A DNA stretch of 27,176 nt from Thermoplasmata archaeon (GTDB lineage Archaea; Thermoplasmatota; Penumbrarchaeia; JAEHCK01; GCA-020356005). Under the pieces are notes generated by a model. The model had not been told where the DNA came from. It saw nothing but the letters and a program-made list of their open reading frames with translations, and ran no database searches. The DNA lies in NCBI GenBank assembly GCA_020356005.1, contig CP070629.1, forward strand, positions 829,558-856,733. Direction: 5' to 3'. The translations under genes were made by a program, and so were the position numbers. Below, in pieces: positions 1-17,111 of this stretch; the first letter of the stretch is position 1, and every line of letters starts with the position of its first letter.

Positions 1-3000
1 ACCCCGATATTGAACGATGACGAGGATAACGATTACGAACCCTCGTTATTATACACCGCTGACGAATTTCTGCTCGTATGGGTCTCAAACGAGTTCGATC
101 AATATACATTCATGGGAAGTACCGATGAGAACCTGATTACATATTCAGTTTCTTCTGACGGCTTGAACTGGAACGATCCTGAGAGTGTCCATCCGCGGTA
201 CTGCCAGGAATCCACACCTTATTTAAGCGTCGATTCCATCGGCAGAATTCTGCTTACATGGAGCTCGGACAGGATGGATTTCGAAGAGGCAGAGGATGAG
301 CGCGATCACGATAAAGATATCTGGTATTCTACTTACGCCGCCGGTGAATGGGCTGTGCCTTCGGCGCTCACATCGGATCCGGCCAACGATGAATCGCCCT
401 CAATGTTCCAGAAGGGGAACGGCGATTACTGGACTGTGTGGTCGCGGGATGACAGGATCTTTTATTCCACCACGGATGAGCTTCCGCCTCCGGTCAATGC
501 CTTCGGATCAGCAATTAATGTTCCCATCGATAGATGGCGAGAGGAATTCGACTATACATACGAGGACGAGATCTCAAACACATTCTGGATCTACAACTAC
601 GGTGAGCGCGACCTGACAGGTAAGATCACTGCTTCGCAGGGATTCACATTAAACAAATTTGAATTTGCTATTGCGCCCGGAGAAAACATATCGTTCACGG
701 TTACATTAAACGCCAAGGACGAAGGGCGGTACCTGGGTGTCGTGGAGATCCTATCCAATGACGAGATCGCACCCAGGATTTCCATCCCGCTATATGTGAA
801 GATCACATCGTCAGAATTCGAAGAGAGCGAGAAGGATATCGGAGAGGGCGTCGGACCTGAGGAGGAGGAAGCAGAGGAGGAGGGCGAAGAGGATTTTCAG
901 AGAGTGCTTATTTTACTTACCGCCCTGGTTATAATTCTGCTGTTAATATTCATAGTAATGAGAAGAGAGGAGAAGAAAGCGGCGGAGGAGAAGAAGAAGG
1001 AGGATGAGGAGGAAGAGGAAGAAAAGGAAGAGGAGGAGGGGGAGGAAAAGGAAGGTGAAGAGGGTGAAGAGGAAGGTGAGGGTGAAGAAGAGGAAGAAGG
1101 AGGAGAGGAAGAGGAAGGAGAAAGCAAGGGAGAAGAGGGATCGGAAGTGGAGGAGGATGCAGCAAGTGATGAAGATGTAAAGACGGAGGAAAAAGAACCC
1201 GAAGATAAAGGTGCCGCCAAAGCCAAACCCAAGCGTAAGAGAGCCGTGAAACCTTTAATGGTGTTCGGTGCGTTTTTCAGCATTATGATTCTTTTATTAT
1301 CAAATTGTTCAGGTGCGGCGAATATGATGGTGCTCGCTCAGGATTCGGATATACCCCAGAGCGAGATCCCCAAGATATCCGAAAACGACCCCGGCGAATT
1401 CTGGACATGGGTACCCTATTATGACCAGAGCGGTGAAGAATCCAATCTGGAGATGCATTCCGAGTATTATGACGATGAAGGTACTTATCCACCTGACTGG
1501 GTCGAGTACGGAAGCTCTCTCAGTTTAAGACAACTGGTGGAGATGCCTTTCCCGGTGGAAAAACTGCGGTTCTGGATGAGGCATGACGAGGGCAGCGGAC
1601 CTGTGGGAGTAGAGATAACAGAAAATGTTTCCAGCAAGGTTGCTGCGGGAACAGAATATTTCTGGGCGGATTATTCATCCAGTTCATATGACTGGTGCGA
1701 GGTCAATGTTTCCACTTCGAAAATCACCAATGTTCTCGGAGGGGGGTCATACTATATTCATCTTACACCCCCCATGGATATACTTACCGAAGGTGAAATG
1801 TACGGAGTAAACCGAATAGGTACTGTTAAACTTAATGATACTCCCATACCCCCCGCGCATATTGTATATAAAACCCTGTATGATGCAGAAGTGGATTTCG
1901 CACAGAGAGGTACCGATAAGTATCAGCACATATTCTGGACTTCAAAGATCGATGATACTGTTTTGATTGACGAATTCTTTATGGACTATGACTATTACGA
2001 CGATCTAAACCCGCAATATATGTCTGACTCCCTCTGGTATACCGATAACGATTTCAATATGAAAATGGAGTTGTATATCAAAGCCGAGATGTTCAACAGC
2101 GCTAATGTTTTTCAGCCTTCTTATCCGGGTTACGAGAATGCCGAAATAGCAGGAAAAATAAATATCGTCAATCCCTTCAGCGACCAGGAGAACTTTACTG
2201 TCAGAGTAGGGTTACTGGGTCCCGATGGAACAGAATATAACGTTTTGAATGAAGAACATAAAATCAAATACGGAACAAACCTACAGCTCGATTACTCTTA
2301 TTTCACAGAAGCCAAACTTCCAGCAGGCGATTATAATGTCCTGGCGGGCATTTATCTGACTGACATTTATGAAGGTGAATACCTGGTCATGGCGGATAAA
2401 TGGGGAGATACGGATTACGAGTTGGAAAAAACGAAATTTTCTATTATCAATACCACCCCGATCATGGATGTTACCCTTATCGATAAGCTCAAGAGCGATG
2501 TTGTTGACGGCAAGATCCCGGTGTATTACCTCAAATGCAGTGATGCGCCCGGCCATAAGCCTCCCCGGTCGATTCAATCGGAGATGGATAATATCCAGGA
2601 ACGGTTCGATTCACTCGAGAGTGTACTTGGCGTGGACTTTGAACATAAAGATATAACCAGCACTCGTGAATTCCTGGAATTGGTAGAATCGGACGTTAAA
2701 GATGCCATAGTGGTTAACTACCACAGCGATTTACTGCCCATACCATCAAGCTTTGCCCGCGGCGAGTATGTTGATTTGAACACGATCGTACGATACTATT
2801 TCGACGAAAATAACGGCACCACTGTTTACGACCGTTCAAAATATATCAATGACGCAGACTTCGTCGGCAATCCCGCCTGGACACAGGAGAAGTATCAGGG
2901 TGCATCTGCACTGTACTTTGATGGGTCGAACGATATGCTGGAAATAGATGACGATATTACATTGAAAACTCCCCGGTTCACCATCCAGTTCTGGCTTTAT

Positions 3001-6000
3001 TTGAATAAAGAATATACATCCGGTGTGCAGAGCATACTATCATATGCTGGTTCAAAAGGCGGATATGAGATCAACTTAAATCAAACATCTTCAAATGCAC
3101 CAAACCAGATCGAGTTCTCGATTTCACATAATTCCTCATGGCACCACATCTCCGGTATGTCGCTGGAAGTGAATAAATGGTACAGGATCACTGCGATTCT
3201 GAACGATACGGAAGCTTCACTCTATGTGGGGTGGGAGGAGACCAAGAAGAAGCGCAGGAGTGAGGTTACCATACAGGTGGATGAACTGCAGGGTAAAATC
3301 GAGCTCGGCGGGATTTCTTTCAGTGATACCTCCTTGACCATCGGCGGCTCGAAGTTGGATACAACCAGAAATATAGAGATGTATATTGATGATTTTATTC
3401 TGACCAATGATGTGCGGCTCCCGCAGGAATACACCGAGGGTCATCCCGAGGACGGTGTCAACTGGGTCAAACGAGTTGGTAAATGGATCGCCGACTCTGG
3501 CATCGTATTCGTGAACACAAGGTACAGTCCCTTCACCGCCGTTGGCAATACAGATAAAAACTGGCCGTACAACAGGATTTCATTGGGAGCCGAGGGCTTC
3601 GGAAATATTCTGGAAACACGCTCAGTGGACGCCACAATATACAAGGATACATGGCTGGAGAATATCAAAACCGACAAAACACCCGAAGCGGCAAATATTC
3701 AAACAATATTGAGCGCGTGGGGCATTCCCTTTCCGGATTCTTTTGAGAGCGCTCAAACCTATATGACTTTGGACTCCGAGCTTGAACCTTTCTGCATACC
3801 GCTTTATAAAACGGCTGATAATGAAATTACCCATGCAATGATATTCTATGGTAAGGGAGCCATAATGTATAACGGCCTGAATAACCCCGACGCCGCCCTC
3901 ATTGCCGGCACTGCGGGTTGGTATACAGCCAAGAATATCCAGCCGCTGTATTTCATCGACTGTTCTGATGCACCCAAATCCTCAAGCAGTAAAGATTACG
4001 TGACGGAGCTGAAGAGCTCGTTTGATAAATTACAGGCGGATACGGGTATTCAATTCTATTATATTACTATCTCCAGCACCGACCAATTCTATCAATTGAT
4101 CAACTCCAACGTCAGGGATATCATTGTGGTGAACACGCACGGAGAATACCTGCCAATGCCGGCAAATTACATCAGCGGTGCATGCGTGGACGATAAAACG
4201 AATGCACTCCTGGGATTCGAGGAGGGCAGTGATATCAGCGCCTTCGATATCTCTGGCAATTACAATGACGGATTGATCGTCGGCGCTACATGGAGCACCA
4301 ATGCCCATTACGGCGATTATGCACTTGATTTCGACGGCAACGATTTTGTCGTCCTGACGCGTACGCCCAAGCTGTCGCCGAAAACCTTTACTATTGAATG
4401 CTCCGTTTATCTGAAGCAGGATTATGATAACAAGTCTGCAGCAATTATCTCAAACGAATTCCATCGTGATTCAGAACCGGGTGAAGAATACACGCATACT
4501 TACGGATATTCTCTTTACATTAATTCCAATTATACTACATTAAACAGACTGGTATTTTCATTGGGTACAAAACTGCCTGAAGTGGAGCCTCTTTATTTCG
4601 ACAGTCTGGAAAAGGAGCGGTGGTACAGGCTGGCTGCTACTTACGACGGCAGGTATATGAAGCTTTATGTCAACTATGAGGAGGTAGCTTCCAAGGTAGC
4701 GTACGGCCTCCATCCCGAAACGCTCAATAATCTGCAGATAGGTAAATGTCCCAGATACGATTACCCGATAAATGCAATAATAGATGATGTGCGGATATCG
4801 GAGGGCGCGTTATCACCTGACCAGATGCTAATAGATGTTGTGTCTCATAAGTTATGTCTGGAGGACCTGAATAGGTGGATTTCAGAGAGTAGTATTATCT
4901 GGACCAATATTGAGGGCTATGATTTCCTTTACCTGGGTTTAAAAGATCAGGACTGGCCGGATGACAGAGTCAACATTGGCTATGACGGCCTCAGTGAGTT
5001 TTCAGAGATCGGACTGCCGCCGCTTGAACTCAATACCAGATCAAACACATGCACTCTGACAGACGTTGGCGATAAAATCGATACCGATCTGGCCAGTATG
5101 ATTTTGAAATCCAGCTTCCAGAGCACTGCAAATATACCTGCCTCATACGATATGTTCACTATTCCCATCTATTCGAATGACAACGCTGTTTCGCACGGGG
5201 TGATACCCATCGGTAAGGGTAAGTTCATCCATACCGGCACCTACGATGCAGATCTGGTTGCTTCAACTGCCGCATGGTTTTTCACGAAAGGTAATGTCCA
5301 GATGATTTTCCTGGTGGACATCCCCGCAACCGTTGGCGGTACCGACCCTCTGGTTGTGGAATCCCAGCACCCTTATCCCACCAGGTTCGGAACCTCCGAG
5401 AATCTTATTGATAACCCCGGTGCGGAATCCGGCAGCATGTCGGGCTGGAAAGTCCTATTACACGGAGGTAACGGCTGGAGGGTACAGGGCGGCAGCTACG
5501 ACGGCGAAAAGCACTTCAGGACATCTTTTAACTGGTGCAAGCGTTATCAGGAGATCGATTTACTGGCAGAGGGGTACACCACCGATGAATTGAATGCTAA
5601 GCCCACCATCTATGCAGAGGAATGGTTCCACGGGTCATGGCCGAACTACGGTGATTACTACTACCTGAAAGTGGAGCTCCGCGACGCTAACCATAAAGCC
5701 ATCTCAACCTATAATTCCGGAGTACAGCGTGCAACGAACAGCTGGCAGAAGTTATCTCATACCTTCTCAGAGTACGGAGCCGGTGTGCGCTATATCTACT
5801 GGGAGGACGGCGGTGACGATGCGGAATACTGGTGGGGATATTACGGTGTAATGATCGACGGTGCGTTTTTGACCATTGACACCGCCGAGCTGGATGATAC
5901 CTGGGTTTTTTACAAGCCCGATGTGAGCAGGATCAGGGTGCATTTCGAAAAATACGAGATAGGTTCCACCGGAGATTACATCAAGGTCCTGAATAAGAAC

Positions 6001-9000
6001 GATTGTGAGCTCGCCAGGTACTCCGGTTTCGATTCCTCAGGAATGTGGACACCGTGGTGCGAAGGCGATACTGTCAAGTTGAAAATGGTAACCGGTTCCG
6101 GCCGGCACTACTGGGGTTTCAAGGTAAATAAGATCGAATATCTGACCGACGGGGTCTCCCCCATTCATCCCTACGGTAAAGCCGAGCTGATAAATAAATT
6201 GACCAATCTTGAGAACACCATGGACACCATCTGCATATTCAATGAAATTACTTCAACCGCCGAATTTGAAAAATTGGTAGAAAGCCGTCTAGAATCGCCC
6301 ATGGTCATCAATTTGCACGGCGATGCGGTGCCCGTCCCTGATTCTTATTTAACCGGAGGTGCCAGCGCCACCATACCGCCGCTGGGCTATTCGCCGGGCG
6401 GTGTAAAAGGCGAATATTACGACAACGAGGGTTTCACGAACCTGAAGGAGACCCGTGTGGACAACGAAATAAATTTCTACTGGAAATACGGCAGGCCTGT
6501 GGGTTCCGTCCATGGTGATACATTCAGCGTTAGATGGACCGGAATGCTGAGAGTCGATTTCTCAGAGGAATATACCTTCCATGTCCAGACAGATGACGGC
6601 ACCAGGTTCTGGATCGACAAGAACATGGATGGTGATTTCGACGATGCAGAAGAACTTGTAATCGATACCTGGAAGCTCCAGGCACCCACCTGGCATCAAG
6701 GTAAAATAAAGCTTACTCCCGGGTTCTATAATATCAAGTATGAATATTACGAGCATTACGGCTATGCGGTGGCAAAGCTGTTCTGGAGCTCGAAAAACAT
6801 TAAAAAGTCGGCGGTACCCGGCGAGAACCTCTATTCAAATCTGGCAACGCCGGCGGGCTACACCTCCGGCGGTCTTGAGGGTGAATATTATGATAATGCC
6901 GATTTAAAATATTTGAAGACAAAAAAAGTTGATTCAACAATCAATTTTAACTGGGGTACGGAAAGCCCGGATGCGGCCGTGGACCCTGATACATTATCGA
7001 TCAGATGGACGGGCATGGTAAAAATCGACGAGACGGGTGAATATGAGTTCTCGGTTAACACCGATGACGGGTCGAGGCTGTGGGTGAACAATCAGCAGAT
7101 CATCAATTCATGGAAGGACCAGTCCGCGCCCACTGAGTATTCCGGTAAGATCTCCTTTACGAAACCCGGTTTTTACGATATCACCTACGAATACTTCAAG
7201 AATACCGGGAGCGCTACGGCACAGCTATACTGGAAAACTCCATCCATGACGCAGGATGGTGAGCAGAAGGTAATCATTCCCTCCGATCATTTATTCAACC
7301 GCGGCGGGATATTCAGATACGCACAGGAATGGCTGAACGAGCTGGGCGATTGGGTTGCGCAGAACGGTGTGGTATATGCCAACACCAAGGATTACCCGTT
7401 CCAGTACGCCATAATCGATAACCCGCCGCCCGACAGCGGCAATCTCTGGTTCATCGGCGAAGAGGGTTTTTCGGAGTTTTTATCACCGCGCTCAGAAAGT
7501 GTAACGCTTGCACGGTACGAAGAAGGGCTCGGGATGGGCAACCTGACCCCCAACGGAAGAGCGCTCCGTGATTACCTGCCTGCGCGTACATTACCGAATT
7601 ATGTGACCGATGTACCCTACCCGCTGCCCTCAGACTATGACTGTATTCCCATCTTCCGCGACAAGGACAACAGGGATATTACCCACGGTATTATTCCCTT
7701 CGGAAGGGGTGCGTACATCCACTGCGGCGGATTCTCGGTGGATGCCTTAACCGCCATGTGTTTCATGTATTCATCTAAAAGAGACGATATGCGGTTTATC
7801 GGCGAGGTATATTACAAAGGCGAAACCGTCTGGACACAGGTACAGGTTCGCAACGATTATCCAATGGAAATGACATATGATTTTGAGCTGGTAACCCATT
7901 TCCCGGAGGAGGGGCTGCGGTCCAGGCGGATGACGGATTCGGAGATCGTTACTCTGCAGCCCGGCGAGGAGAAGACCATATACCTATCGTGGACGCCCAT
8001 CCAGCCGGATAAGATCGGTAAGTACAGCCTGGTAGTCCAGGTAATCGATCTGGAACGGCACACACTGGTAGAGATCTGGGGTAACGATATAGAGAACGAG
8101 TCTATTTCCATTAGCGTGGAGGTGGGAGCTTATATTTCGCAGCTTAAGACCAGCGATTACCTGGGATATTTCGATACTGTTGAAGTTGAGGTTACCATAA
8201 CGAACGAGATGTATATAGATAATCTATTTATCGTCAGCGGTATTTTCCAGAACAAAATCAACAAACATGTTTACTGGACGGAGGAGGAGGAACTTCCGGA
8301 GTATGAAGCCGAGGGTGGTATGGATACTACAGTGACTGTTGTATGGCATCCCTCCCAGCATAACTATCCGAACCAGACTTTTGAGCTCGGGATCTACCAG
8401 GGTACCATATTCTTAGAGGATGTTGCCAGTGCTTACTGCATACCCGATAAAAGTTATAAGACAGGTGAGCCGAAATATTTCAGGGTGAAGAAGATCATAG
8501 ATCAGAGCTCCACGGAATTCCGGATCGTGGGCCAGCTGGAAATCAATTTCCCGAAGGATATCGGGACATGGTCCATCAGCTACCACGGCGAGCTGGGCCC
8601 GTACTTCCCAATCAACCCGCAGGTCCGTGATGTGGTGCGCGTGTTCGACCCCGAGTACGATATCTGGATACGCCGCGACAGCCGGCTGGAGCTGGAGCCA
8701 GAAAGAGAGCCAGGCGGCATGATAGGCTACTGGAAGTTTGATGAATCTGTATGGACCGTGGACGCCGGCCAGGTTACCGATTCGTCGGGCAACGGGCACC
8801 ACGGCACCGCTTATAACGGTGCAAATACGGTACAGTATTCAAGATTCGGTCGATCAGCTGCCTTCAACGGGCAGAATTATGTTGTGATACCGGCCCATGA
8901 TGACATCAATGTTGGTAATAACAATGCGAACTTCAGTGTGGAATTCTGGTTCTTTTTAAAGCAGGGTCCCATCCGTTATTGGCGCAACATAATGCACAAG

Positions 9001-11541
9001 GGTAGTACGAATTCCGAGCGAACATTTGCAATGTGGATGAAGCCATGGGATAATAAAATCCATGCCCGGATAAGCACCACACACAACGTGAACGAGGGAT
9101 TTGACAGCAAGGCATACCTCCAGTTGAACTCATGGACACATGTCGCTTATGTTAAAGACGGAAACACGCTCAGTCTATACCTGAACGGTAAACTTGATAC
9201 CAAGTACACATTGGTTGGTTCTGTTGTTAACAATTCGGGACCGCTGTACATAGGGAAGGACATGTGGTACAATGGCGTTAACAGCCACATCGATGAATTG
9301 TGTCTTTACAACCGCCCCATTTATGAAGATGAGATAAAGCTGCACTATAAGAGCGGTGTAATGGAAGCTTCGGACAGGAACGCTTTCAAGCTGGGTTATT
9401 ATTCGGATTCCGGAAATGACCTGTATGCTGTGGTGAATTTTGAAAGCCAGGATGACGGCAACAGCTACCAGAAGGTTTTAAAGCTGCCCGCTGACGGCAA
9501 CTATCTAGATGTGGAACATCTGTTTGCATATTACTGGCCCGAGGGTACAACTTTAAAGATCTCGCAGGAGCCTAATTTGCAGTTCTCCGGTACGGAATAC
9601 TTCAGTTATAACGGCCCGAGACCCACCACTTTGCCTCTGGAGACCACCGTTAACGGTGTGGATTGCGCGGTACTTTACAACAGAGGTGCGGGAGTCACTT
9701 ACGATGTGGTTTTAAACGATGCGAACTTCTACAAGATCTTCATTACGGCCCAAAACTGTCCCAAGTCCGAAGCCGGCGATATAAAGCTCAGGCTGCATCT
9801 GCACTACTGGACCGGCAACCCGGCACACAAAGATTCGTTCGGTAACGTTGGATGGAAGACCAACGACGAGTCACCGAAGGATTTTGTATGGAGCGAGCGA
9901 AATGAGGAATTTGATACCAAGGAGTTCAGGCTGATACTGTCACCTGCAGGTCATTATCACATAACAATAGAGAACCTGCACGATTATTATACAAAAGATT
10001 ATGACAAGAACGCGTATATATCCGAAGTAGCGATCCGCCCGACATATGCTCTTGATATGGAAAAGCAGAAAGTAGATGAGAGCCAGATGCTGGCAAGCGG
10101 AGAGGCGGGCACACGGAGCATAAGCACCAGCAGCCGTGTGGGCGAAGATGGACCCATCGGCAACCGCAACTGTGACCTCGGTGTTCGACCCAAGAAGGTG
10201 CCGGATGAAACCATGGACTATACGTATAACGAGGTCCCCATCCCGATGTTCGGCGCCAACTACGATATGGGCAGCCCGGGCATAGAAGCTGGCGGCAGCC
10301 TACCTGTAAAATTCGGTGACCATGTAGGATTGGAAATAGAATTCGGTTTAGAGATAGATCCTACTACGGGACTGCTTCAAAAGATCTCTATCGGTATCAC
10401 ACTGGGTATCGAGGGTGAGATAGGCGGGATAGTTAAAATCGCCGCCAAGATACAGGTCCAGATAGAATTCGATGATATACTTAACACCAGCAAACCCTTT
10501 ATTGAGAAATTCAAATGGTCTGTTACTGTTGAGATCGAGGTGGGTTTCGAGATAGGTAAATTGATCTGGAAAGCGCCCATAAGCTTCGAGGTGCCGAAAC
10601 CTGGAGGAAAAGAGGGTGAAGATGAATCTCTATTGGCATTGAAACTCTGCCTGTGGATAGAGCTCGGTTTCAAGATAAGTCTGCACAGCGGAGCGAACGC
10701 CGGTGACGTCCAGATAACAGCGGGAATCTACGGCGGCATTAAATTCGAGGTCAAGTTCGAGGTCAAGATCACTCCTGATATCTTGAAGGGATTAACGCAA
10801 AAGAGTACAGATATGAGAAAGGAGAACACCAAGGCGTTAACCGATCACGCCGACCAGTCCCAGAAGGCAGAGGAATTAGAGGAAAAGCGCGAGAACAAAA
10901 TCAAGGAAATGCAAAAAGACAATAAAGATAAACCGCGCGAAGAGATCGAGAAGTTAGTAGACGAATCGCCAATGGGAAAACAGTATGCCGAGGAGCAGAA
11001 AAAGAAAGAGGATTCGTTCGCGAACCTGATGAAAAGCAGTAAAAAGTTGAGCGAATGTAATAAGTTTAAGGATATATTCGAAAAGGTTTTCGGGAAGGGC
11101 TTCAAGGATTTCCCGACCTTCCTTGAGATAGAGTTCACCATAAATTTTGTTATCGGCCTCCGCCTGGGTGTAAGCACACAGGTAGCGCCGTTCTCGCCTA
11201 CCGGTCCATACTGGAAACTGCTGTTCTACACCGAGTTCTTCTTCGCGGCTGAAATATCCTTTAAAATAATTATCAATATCTGGATCATTAAACTGGAATT
11301 CCCCATAGGCTTCAAGTTCTGGATCGACAAGATCTTCTGGATGAACAAGGTCAATATAATCGGTGCATCAGAATGGGATGACGACGGCGTTATGGGTCAG
11401 TTCATGTTCAAATGCCGCGAAAATATAGATGATGAGACCAAGGACATGATGCTGCCCGCACCCATAGGAGACGATTCAGGCTTCGAAGTGGTGTTCCTGT
11501 GGTTTAAGTTCAAGTTCTCGTTTTGTTTGGTATCTACTTGA
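1..11541 (+). CDS. Giant membrane-anchored multi-lectin surface protein (5'-incomplete, at least 3,846 codons): BNR/Asp-box-like repeats, TM hairpin with poly-E/K loop, 3x LamG, FBA, 2x PA14, CARDB-like Ig folds, C-terminal amphipathic beta-strand module
   Basis: The frame is uninterrupted from nt 1 to the TGA at 11539-11541. Codons 1-9 (acc ccg ata) contain no stop, so the TTG at nt 10 in the ORF track is probably not the real start and the gene likely continues upstream. Recognisable motifs occur along the whole length: SSDGLNW Asp-box, GEYYDN...SVRWTG PA14 signatures, LamG 'IDDVRIS/IDELCLYNR' endings, and an FBA signature. All antisense ORFs inside it look like shadow ORFs. Confidence 0.9.
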   Translation, partial: TPILNDDEDNDYEPSLLYTADEFLLVWVSNEFDQYTFMGSTDENLITYSVSSDGLNWNDPESVHPRYCQESTPYLSVDSIGRILLTWSSDRMDFEEAEDERDHDKDIWYSTYAAGEWAVPSALTSDPANDESPSMFQKGNGDYWTVWSRDDRIFYSTTDELPPPVNAFGSAINVPIDRWREEFDYTYEDEISNTFWIYNYGERDLTGKITASQGFTLNKFEFAIAPGENISFTVTLNAKDEGRYLGVVEILSNDEIAPRISIPLYVKITSSEFEESEKDIGEGVGPEEEEAEEEGEEDFQRVLILLTALVIILLLIFIVMRREEKKAAEEKKKEDEEEEEEKEEEEGEEKEGEEGEEEGEGEEEEEGGEEEEGESKGEEGSEVEEDAASDEDVKTEEKEPEDKGAAKAKPKRKRAVKPLMVFGAFFSIMILLLSNCSGAANMMVLAQDSDIPQSEIPKISENDPGEFWTWVPYYDQSGEESNLEMHSEYYDDEGTYPPDWVEYGSSLSLRQLVEMPFPVEKLRFWMRHDEGSGPVGVEITENVSSKVAAGTEYFWADYSSSSYDWCEVNVSTSKITNVLGGGSYYIHLTPPMDILTEGEMYGVNRIGTVKLNDTPIPPAHIVYKTLYDAEVDFAQRGTDKYQHIFWTSKIDDTVLIDEFFMDYDYYDDLNPQYMSDSLWYTDNDFNMKMELYIKAEMFNSANVFQPSYPGYENAEIAGKINIVNPFSDQENFTVRVGLLGPDGTEYNVLNEEHKIKYGTNLQLDYSYFTEAKLPAGDYNVLAGIYLTDIYEGEYLVMADKWGDTDYELEKTKFSIINTTPIMDVTLIDKLKSDVVDGKIPVYYLKCSDAPGHKPPRSIQSEMDNIQERFDSLESVLGVDFEHKDITSTREFLELVESDVKDAIVVNYHSDLLPIPSSFARGEYVDLNTIVRYYFDENNGTTVYDRSKYINDADFVGNPAWTQEKYQGASALYFDGSNDMLEIDDDITLKTPRFTIQFWLYLNKEYTSGVQSILSYAGSKGGYEINLNQTSSNAPNQIEFSISHNSSWHHISGMSLEVNKWYRITAILNDTEASLYVGWEETKKKRRSEVTIQVDELQGKIELGGISFSDTSLTIGGSKLDTTRNIEMYIDDFILTNDVRLPQEYTEGHPEDGVNWVKRVGKWIADSGIVFVNTRYSPFTAVGNTDKNWPYNRISLGAEGFGNILETRSVDATIYKDTWLENIKTDKTPEAANIQTILSAWGIPFPDSFESAQTYMTLDSELEPFCIPLYKTADNEITHAMIFYGKGAIMYNGLNNPDAALIAGTAGWYTAKNIQPLYFIDCSDAPKSSSSKDYVTELKSSFDKLQADTGIQFYYITISSTDQFYQLINSNVRDIIVVNTHGEYLPMPANYISGACVDDKTNALLGFEEGSDISAFDISGNYNDGLIVGATWSTNAHYGDYALDFDGNDFVVLTRTPKLSPKTFTIECSVYLKQDYDNKSAAIISNEFHRDSEPGEEYTHTYGYSLYINSNYTTLNRLVFSLGTKLPEVEPLYFDSLEKERWYRLAATYDGRYMKLYVNYEEVASKVAYGLHPETLNNLQIGKCPRYDYPINAIIDDVRISEGALSPDQMLIDVVSHKLCLEDLNRWISESSIIWTNIEGYDFLYLGLKDQDWPDDRVNIGYDGLSEFSEIGLPPLELNTRSNTCTLTDVGDKIDTDLASMILKSSFQSTANIPASYDMFTIPIYSNDNAVSHGVIPIGKGKFIHTGTYDADLVASTAAWFFTKGNVQMIFLVDIPATVGGTDPLVVESQHPYPTRFGTSENLIDNPGAESGSMSGWKVLLHGGNGWRVQGGSYDGEKHFRTSFNWCKRYQEIDLLAEGYTTDELNAKPTIYAEEWFHGSWPNYGDYYYLKVELRDANHKAISTYNSGVQRATNSWQKLSHTFSEYGAGVRYIYWEDGGDDAEYWWGYYGVMIDGAFLTIDTAELDDTWVFYKPDVSRIRVHFEKYEIGSTGDYIKVLNKNDCELARYSGFDSSGMWTPWCEGDTVKLKMVTGSGRHYWGFKVNKIEYLTDGVSPIHPYGKAELINKLTNLENTMDTICIFNEITSTAEFEKLVESRLESPMVINLHGDAVPVPDSYLTGGASATIPPLGYSPGGVKGEYYDNEGFTNLKETRVDNEINFYWKYGRPVGSVHGDTFSVRWTGMLRVDFSEEYTFHVQTDDGTRFWIDKNMDGDFDDAEELVIDTWKLQAPTWHQGKIKLTPGFYNIKYEYYEHYGYAVAKLFWSSKNIKKSAVPGENLYSNLATPAGYTSGGLEGEYYDNADLKYLKTKKVDSTINFNWGTESPDAAVDPDTLSIRWTGMVKIDETGEYEFSVNTDDGSRLWVNNQQIINSWKDQSAPTEYSGKISFTKPGFYDITYEYFKNTGSATAQLYWKTPSMTQDGEQKVIIPSDHLFNRGGIFRYAQEWLNELGDWVAQNGVVYANTKDYPFQYAIIDNPPPDSGNLWFIGEEGFSEFLSPRSESVTLARYEEGLGMGNLTPNGRALRDYLPARTLPNYVTDVPYPLPSDYDCIPIFRDKDNRDITHGIIPFGRGAYIHCGGFSVDALTAMCFMYSSKRDDMRFIGEVYYKGETVWTQVQVRNDYPMEMTYDFELVTHFPEEGLRSRRMTDSEIVTLQPGEEKTIYLSWTPIQPDKIGKYSLVVQVIDLERHTLVEIWGNDIENESISISVEVGAYISQLKTSDYLGYFDTVEVEVTITNEMYIDNLFIVSGIFQNKINKHVYWTEEEELPEYEAEGGMDTTVTVVWHPSQHNYPNQTFELGIYQGTIFLEDVASAYCIPDKSYKTGEPKYFRVKKIIDQSSTEFRIVGQLEINFPKDIGTWSISYHGELGPYFPINPQVRDVVRVFDPEYDIWIRRDSRLELEPEREPGGMIGYWKFDESVWTVDAGQVTDSSGNGHHGTAYNGANTVQYSRFGRSAAFNGQNYVVIPAHDDINVGNNNANFSVEFWFFLKQGPIRYWRNIMHKGSTNSERTFAMWMKPWDNKIHARISTTHNVNEGFDSKAYLQLNSWTHVAYVKDGNTLSLYLNGKLDTKYTLVGSVVNNSGPLYIGKDMWYNGVNSHIDELCLYNRPIYEDEIKLHYKSGVMEASDRNAFKLGYYSDSGNDLYAVVNFESQDDGNSYQKVLKLPADGNYLDVEHLFAYYWPEGTTLKISQEPNLQFSGTEYFSYNGPRPTTLPLETTVNGVDCAVLYNRGAGVTYDVVLNDANFYKIFITAQNCPKSEAGDIKLRLHLHYWTGNPAHKDSFGNVGWKTNDESPKDFVWSERNEEFDTKEFRLILSPAGHYHITIENLHDYYTKDYDKNAYISEVAIRPTYALDMEKQKVDESQMLASGEAGTRSISTSSRVGEDGPIGNRNCDLGVRPKKVPDETMDYTYNEVPIPMFGANYDMGSPGIEAGGSLPVKFGDHVGLEIEFGLEIDPTTGLLQKISIGITLGIEGEIGGIVKIAAKIQVQIEFDDILNTSKPFIEKFKWSVTVEIEVGFEIGKLIWKAPISFEVPKPGGKEGEDESLLALKLCLWIELGFKISLHSGANAGDVQITAGIYGGIKFEVKFEVKITPDILKGLTQKSTDMRKENTKALTDHADQSQKAEELEEKRENKIKEMQKDNKDKPREEIEKLVDESPMGKQYAEEQKKKEDSFANLMKSSKKLSECNKFKDIFEKVFGKGFKDFPTFLEIEFTINFVIGLRLGVSTQVAPFSPTGPYWKLLFYTEFFFAAEISFKIIINIWIIKLEFPIGFKFWIDKIFWMNKVNIIGASEWDDDGVMGQFMFKCRENIDDETKDMMLPAPIGDDSGFEVVFLWFKFKFSFCLVST
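904..1302 (+). other. Internal transmembrane hairpin: TM1 (VLILLTALVIILLLIFIVM), ~95-aa poly-Glu/Lys loop, TM2 (MVFGAFFSIMILLLS) that resembles a signal peptide
   Basis: Two hydrophobic ~19-aa and ~16-aa stretches sit at nt 904-960 and 1258-1302. Both have basic residues on the loop side (RREEKK after TM1, KAKPKRKRAVKP before TM2). The loop is an almost pure purine (GAR) tract on the + strand. Confidence 0.75.
2791..3432 (+). other. LamG/concanavalin-A-like lectin domain 1 (Laminin_G_3-like)
   Basis: YYFDENNGTTVYDRS...ALYFDGSNDMLEI...FTIQFWLYL...WYRITAI...LYVG...MYIDDFILTN. This is the pattern typical of LamG_3 domains in prokaryotic surface proteins. Confidence 0.75.
4204..4827 (+). other. 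LamG/concanavalin-A-like lectin domain 2
   Basis: LLGFEEGSDISAFDISGNYNDGLIVGATW...ALDFDGNDFVVL...FTIECSVYL...WYRLAATYDGRYMKLYVN...IIDDVRISEGALSPDQM. Confidence 0.8.
5401..5877 (+). other. FBA domain (F-box-associated / Fbs1-FBXO2 type sugar-binding domain)
   Basis: NLIDNPGAESGSMSGWKVLLHGGNGWRVQ...FRTSFNWCKRYQEIDLLAEGY...YYLKVELRD...WQKLSHTFSEYGAGVRYIYWEDGGDDAEYWWGYYGVMIDGA. This aligns block for block with my recollection of the FBXO2 sugar-binding domain: NLLRNPCGEEDLEGW...HGGDGWRVEE...FASSFEWCRKAQVIDLQAEGY...YELTVKLL...WMEISHTFTDYGPGVRFVRFEHGGQDSVYWKGWFGARVT. Confidence 0.8.
6397..6795 (+). other. PA14 domain 1
   Basis: GGVKGEYYDNEGFTNLKETRVDNEINFYW...DTFSVRWTGMLRVDFSEEYTFHVQTDDGTRFWID...GFYNIKYEYYEHYGYAVAKLFWSS. 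This is the canonical PA14 signature. Confidence 0.9.
6868..7245 (+). other. PA14 domain 2
   Basis: GGLEGEYYDNADLKYLKTKKVDSTINFNWG...DTLSIRWTGMVKIDETGEYEFSVNTDDGSRLWVNNQQII...GFYDITYEYFKNTGSATAQLYWKTPS. Confidence 0.9.
8725..9360 (+). other. LamG/concanavalin-A-like lectin domain 3
   Basis: GYWKFDES...VTDSSGNGHHGTAYNGA...AAFNGQNYVVIP...FSVEFWFFL...WTHVAYVKDGNTLSLYLNGKL...LYIGKD...IDELCLYNRPIYEDEIKLHY. Confidence 0.85.
10234..11538 (+). other. C-terminal amphipathic beta-strand module (two blocks) split by a ~105-aa K/E-rich coiled-coil-like insert (nt ~10801-11118)
   Basis: There are runs of strict hydrophobic/polar alternation: GLEIEFGLEID, ISIGITLGIEGEIGG, IQVQIEFD, WSVTVEIEVGFEIG, LCLWIELGFKISLH, IKFEVKFEVKIT, LEIEFTINFVIGLRLGV, EISFKIIINIWIIKLEF, FEVVFLWFKFKFSF. 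I do not recognise a family signature. Confidence 0.6.
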
Positions 11542-12408: not shown

Positions 12409-12532
12409 ATAAAACTGAGATTGGGAATCCGAACCAATTTTTCTCCAAATTTATAAAAACAACAAAGAATTTAATAGTCTATAATGCAATAATGTGGGTA
12501 ATCTTCCGATTATATTCATGGAGCTCTTTGTG

Positions 12533-14665
12533 ATGAAAATCAAGATCAACCGGATATTGTTATTGATTATTGCATTCATATTGATCTTCGCCGCGGTTGG
12601 CAGCGCTGTTATTTACAGATTCTATTTGCAGCCTGAGGAGGAGGAGGCGGAGACGCTCAAAATCGGTGTGCTGCTGCCCCTGAGCGGCCCCGAAGCTGTT
12701 AATTCATATGAGGTGCTGGATTGGGCTGCGGGCAATATCAATTCGCAGGGCGGAATAAAAGAATATCAAATCGAGCTGGTGTACAAAGACACCTATAACC
12801 ATGACCTGGCATTGCTGGCAGATGAGTTCATACAGGACGAATCCATTAAAATCGTGATCGGGCCGGGCACAAGTTCAGGTGTGTTCGATATTGCGCCTAT
12901 GTTCATTGCCAATAAAAAAATTCTTATCAGTGCATTTTCCACTGCAGCCGATGTATTCAACGCCTTCGGCGGTAAGAACTACATATGGCGCACCTGCCAA
13001 TCCGATGTTGCACAGATACGAACCATTCTGCATATACTCGACTCCAGAAATGTACAGAAAATATCGTTGATGTACGAGAACTCGGTTTACGGGAAGTCCT
13101 TCTATGATTGGACCGGTTTTTTTTCGCTGGAACTGGGAATAGAATTATTGAATCTGGTGGAATTCGAGTACGGGCAGAGCGATTTTTCCGAGGATGTGAA
13201 AACTGCTCTGGAGGGTGATCCCGACTATATCGTTTGTGTCGCATTCTCATCGGATGTAGTGGAGATCAAGAAGGAGCTGGATTTGACCGGCAGCTCAGCC
13301 AAGCTCTTCCTCACGGACGCAGGCGAGACGCCGTATTTGATCAGCGACCTAGGACAAGCAGCCGAGGGGCTGGAAGGTACCACCCCCTCTGCAGATCCCG
13401 CTGCGGGTTTCGAGGCAGTTTATCAAACCGAGCTTGGAAACCCGCCCAACAATATAGCAGCCACAACCTACGATGCGTTCCTGCTCGCACTATATACCCA
13501 CGCCAGACAACTTCATACGGGCGGCTCGGAGGGATTAGATGAATCCATAAAAAAAGTTGTTAGTGGTAACGATACGAAAGTGGGCTGGAGGAAAGAGGAT
13601 GTGGGAGCTGCCGTAGAAATGATTTTGAAAGGAGAGCTCCCGGACATCTCAGGCGTTTCGGGGCCATTGGAATTCGATTCCGAATTCGGCTGCGATCCCC
13701 TTGAAACCTTCTTCAATCACTGGCAGGTATCGGGCGGCGAGTTTCAAAGCCAAGATTCGATCAGTTCGGCTGCATCCTTACATGCAGGAGCAGTTAAATC
13801 AGGTGCTTCCGCATGCAGAACTTCGGGCAGCGCTGAAATTGGTAAAATAGAGGACACAACCGGCACAACGAACGGTCAACTCGCTGCCAGGAAGGATTCC
13901 TGGGCCGTAATTGTCTCTACCAGCACAGACTGGGACAATTACCGTCACCAAGCAGACGCTCTTGCTGTTTACAATATGTTGAAAACCAACGGTATGAGCG
14001 ATGATAAGATTATATTGTTAACGGTGGACGACATACCTGACCATGAGCGTAACAAAAAGCAAGGAGACATACACCACGAGATTAGTGGTACAAATCTCCG
14101 GTTGGATGCAGAGATCGATTATTCTGGTAATGATGTTACCTCCAAGATCTTCCGAAATGTATTAACAGGTAAAAAAACCGCCAGGACACCCACCGTGTTG
14201 GAATCCGATGAGAACAGCAATGTGTTTGTGTATATAGTAGACCACGGCGGCCAGGGCACCATACCCTTTGATAACGGCGGAACACTAAAGGCAGATACAT
14301 TGAAGAATTCTATAGTCGGTATGGACAATGACAATATGTTCCGGCAGATGTTTGTTATTATCGAGACATGTTTTTCTGAGAGCATGACCGCCGATATCGA
14401 GACCCCCGAAGTTGTTTTTTTGACCTCCGCAGCAGAGGACGAGCCCTCATTTGCTGCGAATTACGATTCTGAGATCGGGGCATGGCTGGCGGACGACTGC
14501 ACCTACCAGGTGGTTTCCACACTATCGGAGAATAAAGATATTTCCATAATGGAACTGTATGATGATACATATCCCAAGATCACCGGGTCGCACGTAAGAT
14601 TAAAAAACTATAACAGCTTCAGTAATGTTGAGAGCACGCCGGTAAGCGATTTCATCATGCCGTAA
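12533..14665 (+). CDS. Membrane-anchored fusion protein: type-I periplasmic binding protein (LivK/ANF-receptor-like) domain + C13 legumain-family cysteine peptidase domain
   Basis: The N-terminus MKIKINRILLLIIAFILIFAAVGSAVIY is a signal anchor. LKIGVLLPLSGPEAV...GGI...IELVYKDT...KIVIGPGTSS is the PBP1/Peripla_BP_6 pattern. The C-terminal half matches legumain block by block, including the His and Cys of the catalytic dyad: WAVIVSTSTDWDNYRHQADALAVY...DDI...DYSGNDVT..F.NVLTG...VFVYIVDHGG...MFVIIETCFSESM...SHV. The start at 12533 has GGAG 8 nt upstream. The ORF track begins at the GTG at 12494. Confidence 0.85.
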   Translation: MKIKINRILLLIIAFILIFAAVGSAVIYRFYLQPEEEEAETLKIGVLLPLSGPEAVNSYEVLDWAAGNINSQGGIKEYQIELVYKDTYNHDLALLADEFIQDESIKIVIGPGTSSGVFDIAPMFIANKKILISAFSTAADVFNAFGGKNYIWRTCQSDVAQIRTILHILDSRNVQKISLMYENSVYGKSFYDWTGFFSLELGIELLNLVEFEYGQSDFSEDVKTALEGDPDYIVCVAFSSDVVEIKKELDLTGSSAKLFLTDAGETPYLISDLGQAAEGLEGTTPSADPAAGFEAVYQTELGNPPNNIAATTYDAFLLALYTHARQLHTGGSEGLDESIKKVVSGNDTKVGWRKEDVGAAVEMILKGELPDISGVSGPLEFDSEFGCDPLETFFNHWQVSGGEFQSQDSISSAASLHAGAVKSGASACRTSGSAEIGKIEDTTGTTNGQLAARKDSWAVIVSTSTDWDNYRHQADALAVYNMLKTNGMSDDKIILLTVDDIPDHERNKKQGDIHHEISGTNLRLDAEIDYSGNDVTSKIFRNVLTGKKTARTPTVLESDENSNVFVYIVDHGGQGTIPFDNGGTLKADTLKNSIVGMDNDNMFRQMFVIIETCFSESMTADIETPEVVFLTSAAEDEPSFAANYDSEIGAWLADDCTYQVVSTLSENKDISIMELYDDTYPKITGSHVRLKNYNSFSNVESTPVSDFIMP

Positions 14666-14844: not shown

Positions 14845-16284
14845 TCATCGCTCCCTGTATCCCATCTGCTCGCGAACTGTGGGCGGTTTGTATTTCGATT
14901 TCTCAAGATCGAATTTTGCCGTGTATGCCATTTGATTTAACGACTCCGCCAGGAACTCGAACTCGTCACCGGTATTGACCTCAATTTTGTGTTCAAGCTG
15001 TTTCTTCTGCATTGCGTCTGCACCATCTTTAAGTAGAAAAATCGGTCTGGTGATTGACCTGCCCACCAGTATGGACAGAACAGAAATTACAGCAAGAGCA
15101 ATTATGACAAAAAGAATGGATATGTTGAACGCCTCACCCAGCTGTTCGTCGATATAGTCGCTGGCGTTCCCTGTGGCATTTGTTATTTTACCTTCGATCT
15201 CCACAGCGGGTGCGATTATTTCGGCAATGGGCATAACAAATGCGACGCTCCAGCCGGTGCTCTCTATCGGCGCGTAAGCGAAATATTTCTCACCCTCCTC
15301 CAGTTCACACCGACTGATCCCAGAATTGCCCGTTGTCATATCCTCGCCTATGGCTTTTAAATCCGGGTTCGTACTCTCCAGCAGATTCTCAAGCTCAAAG
15401 GATTCGTCCCACATTTTATCCTCAGCCTGCAGGCCCGGCCGGGCGATTATATTACCGTTATTGTCCACAAGTATCCCGTAACCGGTTTCACCAACCTGCG
15501 GTTTAATAATATCGGAATTGATGGTTTTTATGGTAATATCCGCCGCCACCACCCAGAAATAATCTGTGCTGGTGGAGTACACAGGTGCGGAGCATGTTAT
15601 CATCAGCTCGTTCGTACCCACATCCAGGTACGGGCTCGTCCAGGATATCCCGCCCGACTCTACCGCATTTGTATACCAATCCCGCACCCTGGGATCGTAC
15701 GTTGGATCTATTCCGGTATCCCACGGATAAATCCTGGCAAAACCGGAACCGGTCCCGATATAAATCCATTCTACATAGGGATCGTTGGAATAAGTGGGTA
15801 TGAAAATATTATCGAGAACACTTGAAAGGTCCAGTTCAGCTCTAACATTATCTGCAGACACACCGGGGGCCAGCACATATACGGAATCTTCGAAAATATC
15901 TTCAGGCTGCTCGTTTTGTGAATATGAATATTTATATTGAAACGATGATGAATTATCGATAAGAGTGGCGGCGAATTCAGACACTATGCTTACTTCCGAT
16001 TCTATCTTTTCGAACAGCATATTTCCGAAAGCTGCTTGACCTTTTGCCAATCTTACCAGGTTATCCTCGGCTTGTGACTCTAGAGCAGTTGTGCTGTCGT
16101 CCACGGCGCTGTCGCCAAGTTCTGTGCACCGGTCAATAGTATAATCACCGCTCTCCTCTAAATTATCTAGAGAGAAATATCCGAAGAAAATTAATGAAAT
16201 CAGAGAAAATACCAAGAAAACTATCAGGATTTTTGTTCGTATCTTCATTTTGATTCTTGATTTCTGTGTCATAAAAACCACCAT
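14845..16284 (-). CDS. Membrane sensor with extracytoplasmic Cache-like domain and HAMP domain, no output domain (paralogue of the N-terminal two-thirds of the adjacent PP2C phosphatase)
   Basis: It has TM1 (ILIVFLVFSLISLIFFGYF), a ~330-aa periplasmic region, TM2 (ISILFVIIALAVISVLSILV) and a HAMP-like stretch (RPIFLLKDGADAMQKKQLEHKIEVNTGDEFEFLAESLNQMA). By eye it is collinear and roughly half identical with residues ~30-470 of the 17112-19286 product. It ends about 30 aa after HAMP. Confidence 0.8.
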   Translation of the reverse strand: MVVFMTQKSRIKMKIRTKILIVFLVFSLISLIFFGYFSLDNLEESGDYTIDRCTELGDSAVDDSTTALESQAEDNLVRLAKGQAAFGNMLFEKIESEVSIVSEFAATLIDNSSSFQYKYSYSQNEQPEDIFEDSVYVLAPGVSADNVRAELDLSSVLDNIFIPTYSNDPYVEWIYIGTGSGFARIYPWDTGIDPTYDPRVRDWYTNAVESGGISWTSPYLDVGTNELMITCSAPVYSTSTDYFWVVAADITIKTINSDIIKPQVGETGYGILVDNNGNIIARPGLQAEDKMWDESFELENLLESTNPDLKAIGEDMTTGNSGISRCELEEGEKYFAYAPIESTGWSVAFVMPIAEIIAPAVEIEGKITNATGNASDYIDEQLGEAFNISILFVIIALAVISVLSILVGRSITRPIFLLKDGADAMQKKQLEHKIEVNTGDEFEFLAESLNQMAYTAKFDLEKSKYKPPTVREQMGYRER

Positions 16285-16290
16285 ACTTAA

Positions 16291-16626
16291 CTACTTAAGC
16301 ATTTTTTCTGCATCTTTAACATTACTGCAGCATTTAAAAAGAGAGGTAAAGCCTGTTATATCAAAAACCTCCTTCACCTGAGGTTGCAGTCCCACAAGCA
16401 CAAGCTCACCATCATTCTTCTTCGTCTCCTTCAAACCTGCCAGTAGAACTCTTAAACCGGCACTGCTGATGAAATCTACATCTTTCATATCGATAATAAG
16501 CTTAAATTTCTTATCGGAAATGATCGAATTCAACCTGGATTCGAGATCCAGAGCCGTATTGGCATCGATTTTACCCTTTACAATTACAAGGCCCAGGTCT
16601 CGTTTCGTTTTAAAATCCAATTCCAT
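16291..16626 (-). CDS. STAS-domain anti-sigma-factor antagonist-like protein (RsbV/SpoIIAA family)
   Basis: LVIVKGKIDANTALDLE...IIDMKDVDFISSAGLRVLL...LVLVGLQPQVKEVFDITGF is the classic STAS pattern and includes the phosphorylatable Ser in DFISSAG. I chose the ATG at 16626 because AGGAGGA lies 5-6 nt upstream. The track start at 16656 would overlap the upstream gene. Confidence 0.85.
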   Translation of the reverse strand: MELDFKTKRDLGLVIVKGKIDANTALDLESRLNSIISDKKFKLIIDMKDVDFISSAGLRVLLAGLKETKKNDGELVLVGLQPQVKEVFDITGFTSLFKCCSNVKDAEKMLK

Positions 16627-16645
16627 ACTAGTTCCTCCTGATCGG

Positions 16646-17071
16646 CTATTTACCAATATATTTGATCATTGTTAATTCATTCCCTGCATCTGCATCAAAG
16701 GTATAATCCAGTTTATCGATATAAGCTTTCATTAAGAAAATTCCGAGCCCGCCTATTTTTCGCTTCTCCAAAGGCGCTTTCGTATCCGGTTCGGGTACAC
16801 TTTTTGGATCGAAGGACTTGCCCTTATCCCTGATAATGATCTTGAATTCATTGCCGGAACCGGAGCAGTCAATAATAATCGGCCCAGCTGTTCCGGGATA
16901 TGCATGTTTCATTATATTGGTACATGCCTCGTCCACTGCCACCTGCACCTCAAATATCTCCTTTTCGGACCCGAACCCGAGGCTCTTCATGGCATCCGCT
17001 ATAAAGTCCCTGACCTCAGGGAGATTTTCAAGTTTACTCGCAACTTCAAGATGTAATTTCTGATCTTCCAT
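16646..17071 (-). CDS. RsbW/SpoIIAB-like serine protein kinase (HATPase_c, anti-sigma-factor family)
   Basis: N-box EACTNIMKHAY, G1-like IIRDKGKSFDP and G2 IGGLGIFLM. The 141-aa size and the position directly upstream of the STAS gene fit this family. Confidence 0.85.
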   Translation of the reverse strand: MEDQKLHLEVASKLENLPEVRDFIADAMKSLGFGSEKEIFEVQVAVDEACTNIMKHAYPGTAGPIIIDCSGSGNEFKIIIRDKGKSFDPKSVPEPDTKAPLEKRKIGGLGIFLMKAYIDKLDYTFDADAGNELTMIKYIGK

Positions 17072-17111
17072 GTGTATTATCCATCCCGGATCTTTGATTA
17101 AGATATATAAT

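Follow-up and report, generated by a model that had tools for sequence, protein, structure and literature searches.

How does the sugar-binding domain of eukaryotic F-box receptors come to sit inside a large archaeal protein, and what might it be doing there? The question is raised by a 27,176-nucleotide stretch of DNA from a Thermoplasmata archaeon (GenBank assembly GCA_020356005.1, contig CP070629.1, positions 829,558 to 856,733 of the forward strand), which we call the window and whose own numbering is used below. A preliminary description of the window had noticed, at positions 5359-6141, a domain of the FBA family, to which the sugar-binding domain (SBD) of Fbs1/FBXO2 belongs, apparently inserted into a CUB-like beta-sandwich. 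The ORF list and the translation place this entire stretch within a single open reading frame (ORF) on the forward strand, frame 1, and the translation agrees with the peptides given in that description. The ORF occupies positions 1-11541 and encodes more than 3846 amino acids (aa), its start lying beyond the left edge of the window. We consider it probable that the locus encodes a nested CUB::FBA unit within a giant, likely cell-surface, glycan-binding protein. This reading builds on the homology, fold, insertion point, prokaryotic distribution and aromatic conservation that we observed. What is new is the architecture, which is nested, F-box-less and archaeal; the FBA domain family itself is known, and prokaryotic FBA proteins already carry PF04300 in precomputed annotations. 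The host proved to be archaeal, as had been surmised: the sequence comes from a Thermoplasmata metagenome-assembled genome (MAG), and three neighboring ORFs are identical to the GenBank entries UCH89591.1, UCH89593.1 and UCH89595.1.

An FBA domain with the Fbs1 fold

The Pfam FBA profile (PF04300) matches residues 1800-1958 of the ORF (nt 5398-5874) with an E-value of 4e-32. Its score of 112 bits compares with a gathering score of 32.4, and it spans profile positions 8-174 of 175, placing the domain squarely within the family. In a phmmer search of PDB sequences, the top match was the mouse Fbs1/FBXO2 SBD (1umi, E 5e-29, 37% identity), followed by FBXO44 and FBXO6, and the five sequence blocks by which the domain had originally been recognized can all be seen in the alignment to 1umi. 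Judged by its sequence, the match is far above chance and the window domain is a true relative of the Fbs1 SBD.

Structure prediction gave the same picture. An AlphaFold2 model built from 35 sequences has a predicted local distance difference test (pLDDT) score of 93-98 over the FBA domain. Foldseek superposed this model on the Fbs1 SBD crystal structures 1umh, 1umi and 2e33 with target-normalized template modeling (TM) scores of 0.81-0.85 and a root-mean-square deviation (rmsd) of 1.7-1.9 Å over approximately 178 columns. The modeled domain is a ten-stranded antiparallel beta-sandwich of the Fbs1 SBD type. After the Fbs proteins, its next structural neighbors in Foldseek were the bacterial carbohydrate-binding modules (CBMs) CBM22, CBM61, CBM16 and CBM4.

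No F-box was detected within the window, in line with the preliminary description. A Pfam scan returned no F-box or F-box-like match at E-values up to 0.1 in the 3846 aa encoded within the window, whereas the same kind of scan does detect an F-box in three eukaryote-type homologs (P0018, P0034 and P0064). The residues immediately before the FBA domain belong to the CUB strand and to a repeated module.

A mostly prokaryotic family of secreted modules

We searched exhaustively with phmmer against 1.84 billion cluster representatives (50% identity clusters) and found 1298 clusters at E<=1e-3, of which 691 reached E<=1e-10 and 139 reached E<=1e-30. The best 150 representatives, taken together with earlier hits, yielded 143 proteins with 209 FBA domains, up to eight of them in tandem. 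Many of these proteins appear to be exported: 94 of the 143 have a starting methionine and a long hydrophobic stretch within the first 40 residues, and short homologs pair a signal-peptide-like start with a hydrophobic, basic, sorting-like C-terminal tail, which in one case reads 'IPTLSEAG...'. Just six of the 143 are eukaryote-like, with 42-56% identity to mouse Fbs1, and three of these six have an F-box.

To place the family on genomes, we scanned one genome per GTDB species with two narrow peptide patterns derived from one of our alignments (A1), a procedure that undercounts genomes. The 28 loci recovered include archaeal ones from Thermoplasmata, ANME-1/Methanophagales, Methanospirareceae and a Methanobacteriota MAG. 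The bacterial loci belong to Cyanobacteria, Myxococcota (the cultured Minicystis rosea DSM 24000), Hydrogenedentota, Acidobacteriota, several Verrucomicrobiota, Nitrospirota (Nitrospiraceae), Bacteroidota (Flavobacteriaceae and Saprospiraceae), Chloroflexota (Chloroflexia) and Dependentiae. The domains that accompany FBA in hits of the family include SLH, a type IX secretion system sorting tail, PGF-CTERM, CARDB, cadherin, DUF11, fn3, right-handed beta-helix, Laminin_G_3 and NAGPA.

The preliminary description had spoken of FBA as known mainly from eukaryotes, and of an archaeal copy as either a candidate relative of a eukaryote-type glycan reader or a horizontal acquisition. The underlying premise of an essentially eukaryotic domain, which would make the archaeal copy something special, is not supported, given the distribution across about ten bacterial phyla and archaea and the roughly 50% identity of prokaryotic copies to the window domain. 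The FBA family is large, mostly prokaryotic and made up of secreted modules, and the F-box-linked forms are one clade within it. Papers that mention FBA treat the domain as specific to F-box proteins. In the literature as searched it figures only as the substrate-binding end of eukaryotic F-box receptors; here it emerges mainly as a secreted prokaryotic family. Hundreds of candidate lectins are on offer, tandem arrays included.

Two further arrangements were seen within the family. Some prokaryote-type proteins, such as P0011 (1506 aa), are made up of little else than FBA domains in tandem (as many as eight), and such arrays suggest multivalent binding. The eukaryote-type proteins P0018, P0034 and P0064 combine one F-box with two to four tandem FBA domains, unlike the single-FBA mammalian Fbs proteins.

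A putative sugar-binding site

The ligand site of Fbs1 is located at the loop end of the sandwich. We mapped its residues onto the window domain through the alignment to 1umi, with an offset of 113 to the numbering of full-length Fbs1. Hydrophobic contacts between the N-acetylglucosamine pair (GlcNAc-GlcNAc) of the ligand and Phe177, Tyr279 and Trp280 of Fbs1 are essential (PMC4603797). Phe1843 of the window ORF (in TSFNWC, positions 5527-5529, forward strand) corresponds to Phe177 of the GlcNAc-GlcNAc stacking pocket, and Tyr1943-Trp1944-Trp1945 (in EYWWG, positions 5827-5835, forward strand) to Tyr279-Trp280-Lys281. The window domain keeps all three aromatic residues of the chitobiose pocket, with Phe, Tyr and Trp at Fbs1 positions 177, 279 and 280.

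The same platform recurs in most of the approximately 170 prokaryotic domains that we compared. An aromatic residue (Y, F or W) occupies position 177 in 145 of them and position 279 in 102, and tryptophan is the commonest residue at position 280 (144 domains). A lysine at position 281 is usual in the eukaryote clade alone (10 of 14 domains), the prokaryotic ones having mostly A, G or S. Conservation of the aromatic platform supports a conserved putative ligand-binding site. When the glycan-contacting residues were checked, as had been proposed at the outset, the aromatics were found to be kept; Lys281 and the beta5-beta6 loop were not.

We propose that the FBA domain would bind carbohydrate through an aromatic platform at its loop end, formed by Phe1843, Tyr1943 and Trp1944, and that the CUB domain would act as a stalk presenting the FBA head. 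The rest of the protein may contribute as well. Pfam and a hydrophobicity scan of the giant ORF (positions 1-11541, forward strand) identified three Laminin_G_3 domains, two PA14 domains, the single FBA and CUB domains and a pair of transmembrane-like helices. The best of the three Laminin_G_3 domains, which are concanavalin A-like lectin domains, is located at positions 8866-9339 (forward strand; Pfam E 3.6e-48 over three stretches, best aa 2956-3113). The higher-scoring PA14 domain lies 3' of the CUB::FBA unit at positions 6871-7254 (forward strand; Pfam E 1.8e-44 over two stretches, best aa 2291-2418). Together with these neighbors, the FBA domain could form a multivalent glycan-binding adhesin or a substrate-capture protein.

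We infer the extracellular location, the carbohydrate binding and the ligand from homology and architecture. The translation and the hydrophobicity scan place two transmembrane-like hydrophobic segments within positions 889-1311 (forward strand), starting from approximately aa 297 and aa 415. An acidic, low-complexity stretch rich in E and K lies between them, and the long lectin-rich part of the protein follows the second. The pair suggests a membrane hairpin in the middle of the protein, in which case both large parts would face outward. The preliminary description had called the domain extracellular. The surface-protein setting is indeed favored by the transmembrane-like segments, the lectin-like modules and the signal peptides of the homologs, and the location is to be read as a prediction from these features.

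The alternative that survives best is that the window FBA is not a lectin at all, sugar binding having been lost or never having been there, as in FBXO44/FBG3, and that the domain is instead a protein-binding or structural module. FBG3 has Tyr, Tyr and Trp at the three aromatic positions and yet binds no sugar, because four of its loops differ (PMC4603797). Because FBG3 keeps the aromatics without binding, their conservation cannot prove sugar binding or name a ligand. Other points weigh against a sugar-binding surface protein as well: the position of Lys281 is occupied by Trp1945; the beta5-beta6 loop, which is important in Fbs1, differs in the window domain; our literature search found no paper on prokaryotic FBA domains and no binding data for any of them; and the membrane topology is deduced for an ORF whose N-terminus falls outside the window. 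Set against these is the retention of the aromatic platform across most of the prokaryotic domains, which suggests selection on the site. In addition, the closest structural neighbors outside the FBA family are all carbohydrate-binding modules, and FBA travels with lectin-like modules and with glycan-active enzyme domains such as NAGPA and beta-helix. On balance, we regard a non-lectin role as rather unlikely and favor a glycan-binding one.

The FBA domain interrupts a CUB domain

The inserted segment, consisting of the FBA domain and short linkers (GTSENL...TIDTAEL), covers positions 5389-5892 of the forward strand (aa 1797-1964). Before it lies the N-terminal piece of the split CUB domain, PLVVESQHPYPTRF (positions 5347-5388, forward strand, aa 1783-1796), which contains the CUB motif 'ES.HPY'. 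After it comes the C-terminal piece, DDTWVFYKPD...KVNKIEY (positions 5893-6141, forward strand, aa 1965-2047). Both flanks, ESQHPYPTRF and WVFYKPD...KIEY, are present as the preliminary description had quoted them, and its proposal that the FBA domain is an insertion in a CUB-like domain is borne out by several lines of evidence.

The first comes from homologs in which the flank domain is uninterrupted. The spliced CUB sequence drew no match in a word-indexed protein search; the exhaustive phmmer search identified 11 proteins with tandem copies at a period of approximately 104 aa. In the consensus of these units, 'ES.HPY.NN...TW.I..PGA..R.HF...', HPY is followed by seven residues and then W. 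In the window, where the corresponding sequence reads HPY-PTRF[168 aa]DDT-W, removing the insert leaves the same seven residues between HPY and W. The spliced window sequence is 24-39% identical to the uninterrupted units in an alignment that runs gap-free across the junction, and the N-terminal piece aligns with their first 13 or so positions. We also aligned the intact 297-aa segment and its ortholog with 18 uninterrupted units in MAFFT, without forcing the result. All 18 units were split by a gap of 165 residues that coincides with the FBA domain, with 'ES.HPY.' on the N-terminal flank, the remainder on the C-terminal flank and no unit residues within FBA.

A hidden Markov model (HMM) built from uninterrupted units only scores 89 bits on the C-terminal flank and 103 bits on the spliced sequence, so that the N-terminal piece adds approximately 14 bits. 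As controls for this piece, 20 shuffled versions of it and 15 decoy 13-mers reached a maximum of 93.8 bits, a gain of approximately 2-5 bits. Run on the intact window sequence, the same HMM locates the N-terminal piece separately, at the expected place.

The identity of the flank domain as CUB is drawn from its family because the spliced window sequence, matched to Pfam CUB (PF00431), scores weakly on its own (E 0.022, 15.5 bits) and below the cut-off of 21.4. Pfam CUB is matched by 14 of the 21 members of the flank family, with a best E-value of 1e-13. A profile of the family matches cubilin at 3e-18 and also MASP-1/2/3, enteropeptidase, PCPE-1, neuropilins, Kremen and C1s, over profile positions 3-93. 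Where animal CUB domains have their first pair of cysteines, the window and most of the prokaryotic units have 'T-W' and 'GDY', and the conserved disulfides are absent. The disulfide pair is a trait of the animal CUB subfamily and not of the fold.

Alignments mixing FBA-only and CUB-only homologs behaved poorly for modeling. Five of them (A3, A4, A6, A9 and A10) placed the CUB units wholly or largely over FBA columns, and in another (A8) only the N-terminal 18 or so residues of the units were misplaced. None of these mixed alignments was used. We made two separate AlphaFold predictions instead, one CUB-informed and one FBA-informed, from alignments A5 and A7. The CUB-informed model has a pLDDT of approximately 90 for the C-terminal flank and approximately 70 for the N-terminal piece. 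Its junction residues are non-strand, and a strand begins exactly at DDTWVFY. Foldseek superposed the modeled C-terminal flank on the CUB domains of Kremen and enteropeptidase with an rmsd of 2.4-2.8 Å over 83-92 columns.

The flanks and the FBA domain might alternatively be three independent neighbors, the N-terminal piece being a linker with a chance 'HPY' and the C-terminal flank a truncated, self-folding CUB-like domain. Such a view can draw on the shortness of the N-terminal piece (merely about 14 residues), on its pLDDT of below 50 in the FBA-informed model and on the sub-threshold Pfam score of the spliced sequence; neither model, moreover, has both domains at high confidence, which also tells against nesting. 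It has to contend with the exact HPY-to-W spacing, the gapless junction, the unforced splitting of every unit in MAFFT and a bit gain for the N-terminal piece well above that of shuffled or decoy pieces. The motif and both junctions are also kept in two further Thermoplasmata assemblies, and a CUB domain without its first strands would be incomplete beside the solved ones, whose alignment starts at profile position 3. We therefore find three independent domains highly improbable. At the level of sequence, the insertion of FBA into the CUB loop between the 'ES.HPY' strand and the 'TW.I' strand holds.

In those two assemblies, the CUB::FBA nesting recurs with its junctions included. One protein (P0012, annotated as "KAJ51_02860, partial [Thermoplasmata archaeon]") has the nested unit at 65-68% identity to the window, and a locus on contig CBDVCJ010000043.1 (L001) has it at 66% identity. 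Among the best 150 of the 1298 representatives, FBA within CUB was seen in the Thermoplasmata ortholog only. We also searched for an orthologous giant protein with an uninterrupted CUB domain at this position and found none. The CUB::FBA unit thus offers a clean natural case of one beta-sandwich placed inside a loop of another and kept in one Thermoplasmata lineage.

Relation to eukaryotic FBA domains

The nearest relatives of the window FBA are prokaryotic, at 45-58% identity. A neighbor-joining tree of 187 domains unites the 14 eukaryote-type ones in a single clade; the mean distance is 0.65 among prokaryotic domains, 0.49 among eukaryotic ones and 0.72 across the two groups. In a 70-taxon neighbor-joining bootstrap, the eukaryote clade was recovered in 94 of 100 replicates and the pairing of the window with its ortholog in 98 of 100; under midpoint rooting of this tree, the eukaryote clade is not basal. 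The phylogeny called for in the preliminary description thus groups the window domain with prokaryotes and sets the eukaryote clade apart. The near-identical eukaryotic sequence that would have signaled contamination was not found, mouse Fbs1 being the 37% match given above. With its simple method and a sample biased toward domains related to that of the window, the tree does not settle which way an ancient transfer would have gone.

Contamination of the assembly with eukaryotic DNA, or a recent transfer from a eukaryote, is barely credible: although the best-studied family members are eukaryotic and mouse Fbs1 is rather similar for a match across domains of life, the FBA segment is read in frame within a single ORF of a 3.58 Mb archaeal contig, two further Thermoplasmata assemblies have the same nesting, the sequences closest to the domain are prokaryotic, the bootstrap separates the eukaryote-type clade and pairs the window with its ortholog, and the G+C content of the block at 5001-6000 (0.505) is inside the range of the ORF (0.438-0.519).

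The mean identity to the eukaryote set is 34-35% for archaeal and cyanobacterial copies and 28-33% for most bacterial ones, a difference that is small and that we do not read as a signal; archaeal copies are not clearly closer to eukaryotes. The most eukaryote-like copy outside the eukaryote clade was a 74-aa fragment in Dependentiae, with 40% mean identity (L028, positions 2401-3225 of contig JAGOBX010000020.1). We considered whether this could be a eukaryote-derived F-box effector and rejected the idea, as the FBA domain there is preceded by a long glycine-rich region and not by an F-box.

The FBA domain of the window is best described as a lectin-like module of an ordinary prokaryotic kind, unusual in its nested layout, and not as a special archaeal link to eukaryotes. 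The prokaryotic predominance of the family points toward a source for the eukaryotic N-glycan reader. Since FBA is no less frequent in bacteria than in archaea, and the archaeal copies have no clear lead in similarity to eukaryotic ones, the finding by itself has no bearing on eukaryote origins. One can speculate further that the prokaryotic surface FBA domains, the archaeal one included, read the chitobiose/oligomannose core of N-glycans on archaeal or other envelopes, and that the eukaryotic reader of endoplasmic-reticulum-associated degradation was recruited from such a lectin by fusion to an F-box. We consider this scenario doubtful and would not expect it to be right, but if it were, the CUB::FBA unit of Thermoplasmata would preserve an ancestral N-glycan lectin function to this day.

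Other features of the giant protein and its neighborhood

In addition to the CUB::FBA unit, a phmmer self-comparison of the giant protein revealed a split module in three copies, located at positions 2521-7779 (aa 841-2593). The N-terminal halves are at aa 841-936, 1316-1410 and approximately 2080-2121, and the C-terminal halves at aa 1159-1320, 1619-1775 and 2445-2593. Between the halves lies a Laminin_G_3 domain in copies 1 and 2 and the two PA14 domains in copy 3, and neither half has a Pfam match. The CUB::FBA unit is located between the second and third of these modules. The halves could belong to one scaffold domain into which lectin-like guests are nested, echoing CUB::FBA, or they could be two separate domains. 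The giant protein may thus use nesting repeatedly.

Within the first 290 aa are an Asp-box-like 'SSDGLNW' and a weak match to ASH/choice-of-anchor D. The C-terminal 450 aa or so (positions ~10200-11541, aa ~3400-3846) are of odd composition, with a K/E-rich stretch resembling a coiled coil and alternating hydrophobic and charged repeats ('GLEIEFGLEIDP...', 'KFEVKFEVKI'). The region matched no family and may serve in anchoring or assembly.

Two legumain-type (Peptidase_C13) proteins are encoded in the neighborhood, at positions 12494-14665 on the forward strand and 21686-24055 on the reverse strand. One is fused to Peripla_BP_6 and the other has bacterial Ig-like domains, and the pair would fit extracellular protein degradation by the archaeon. 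Between them, at positions 14845-19289 of the reverse strand, lies a bacterial-style partner-switching set, all genes of which run in one direction: a Cache-HAMP-SpoIIE (PP2C) phosphatase, a HATPase_c_2 anti-sigma-like kinase, a STAS protein and a further Cache-HAMP protein.

Comparison with known systems

Among characterized proteins, the SBDs of Fbs1/FBXO2, Fbs2/FBXO6, FBXO27, FBXO17, FBXO44 and NCCRP1 are the obvious counterparts, and the window domain resembles them in whole-domain homology, in the ten-stranded sandwich and in the aromatic residues for GlcNAc-GlcNAc. It differs from the Fbs/FBXO proteins in having no match to an F-box or its linker, and no Skp1 docking or link to ubiquitination is expected. 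It also differs in being predicted to be extracellular rather than cytosolic, in being nested, in having Trp in place of Lys281 and in belonging to the prokaryotic part of the tree.

The closest counterparts are the secreted prokaryotic FBA proteins of Acidobacteriota, Hydrogenedentota, ANME-1 and Minicystis rosea, which are uncharacterized and carry PF04300 by machine annotation. These proteins supply the nearest relatives described above and share with the window domain the start 'NLL.NPGAE.GDMSGW', the end 'RYIYWEDGG.D.EYW.G.YG' and surface-protein contexts. Their FBA domains stand alone or in tandem, whereas that of the window is nested.

For the host domain of the nested unit, the known counterparts are the animal CUB domains (PF00431) of cubilin, MASP, C1s, neuropilin, enteropeptidase and Kremen, which the flank family resembles by profile and the modeled C-terminal flank by superposition. 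The window version differs in being prokaryotic and cysteine-poor, with 'T-W' in place of 'C.W', and in being split by a guest of 168 residues. Finally, CBM22, CBM61, CBM16 and CBM4, which have a galactose-binding-like fold, are structurally similar to the window FBA (target-normalized TM scores of approximately 0.55-0.73) and are likewise extracellular accessory sugar-binding modules of large multidomain proteins. Their identity to the window domain in structural alignments is 12-21%, and Pfam assigns FBA alone to the window segment.

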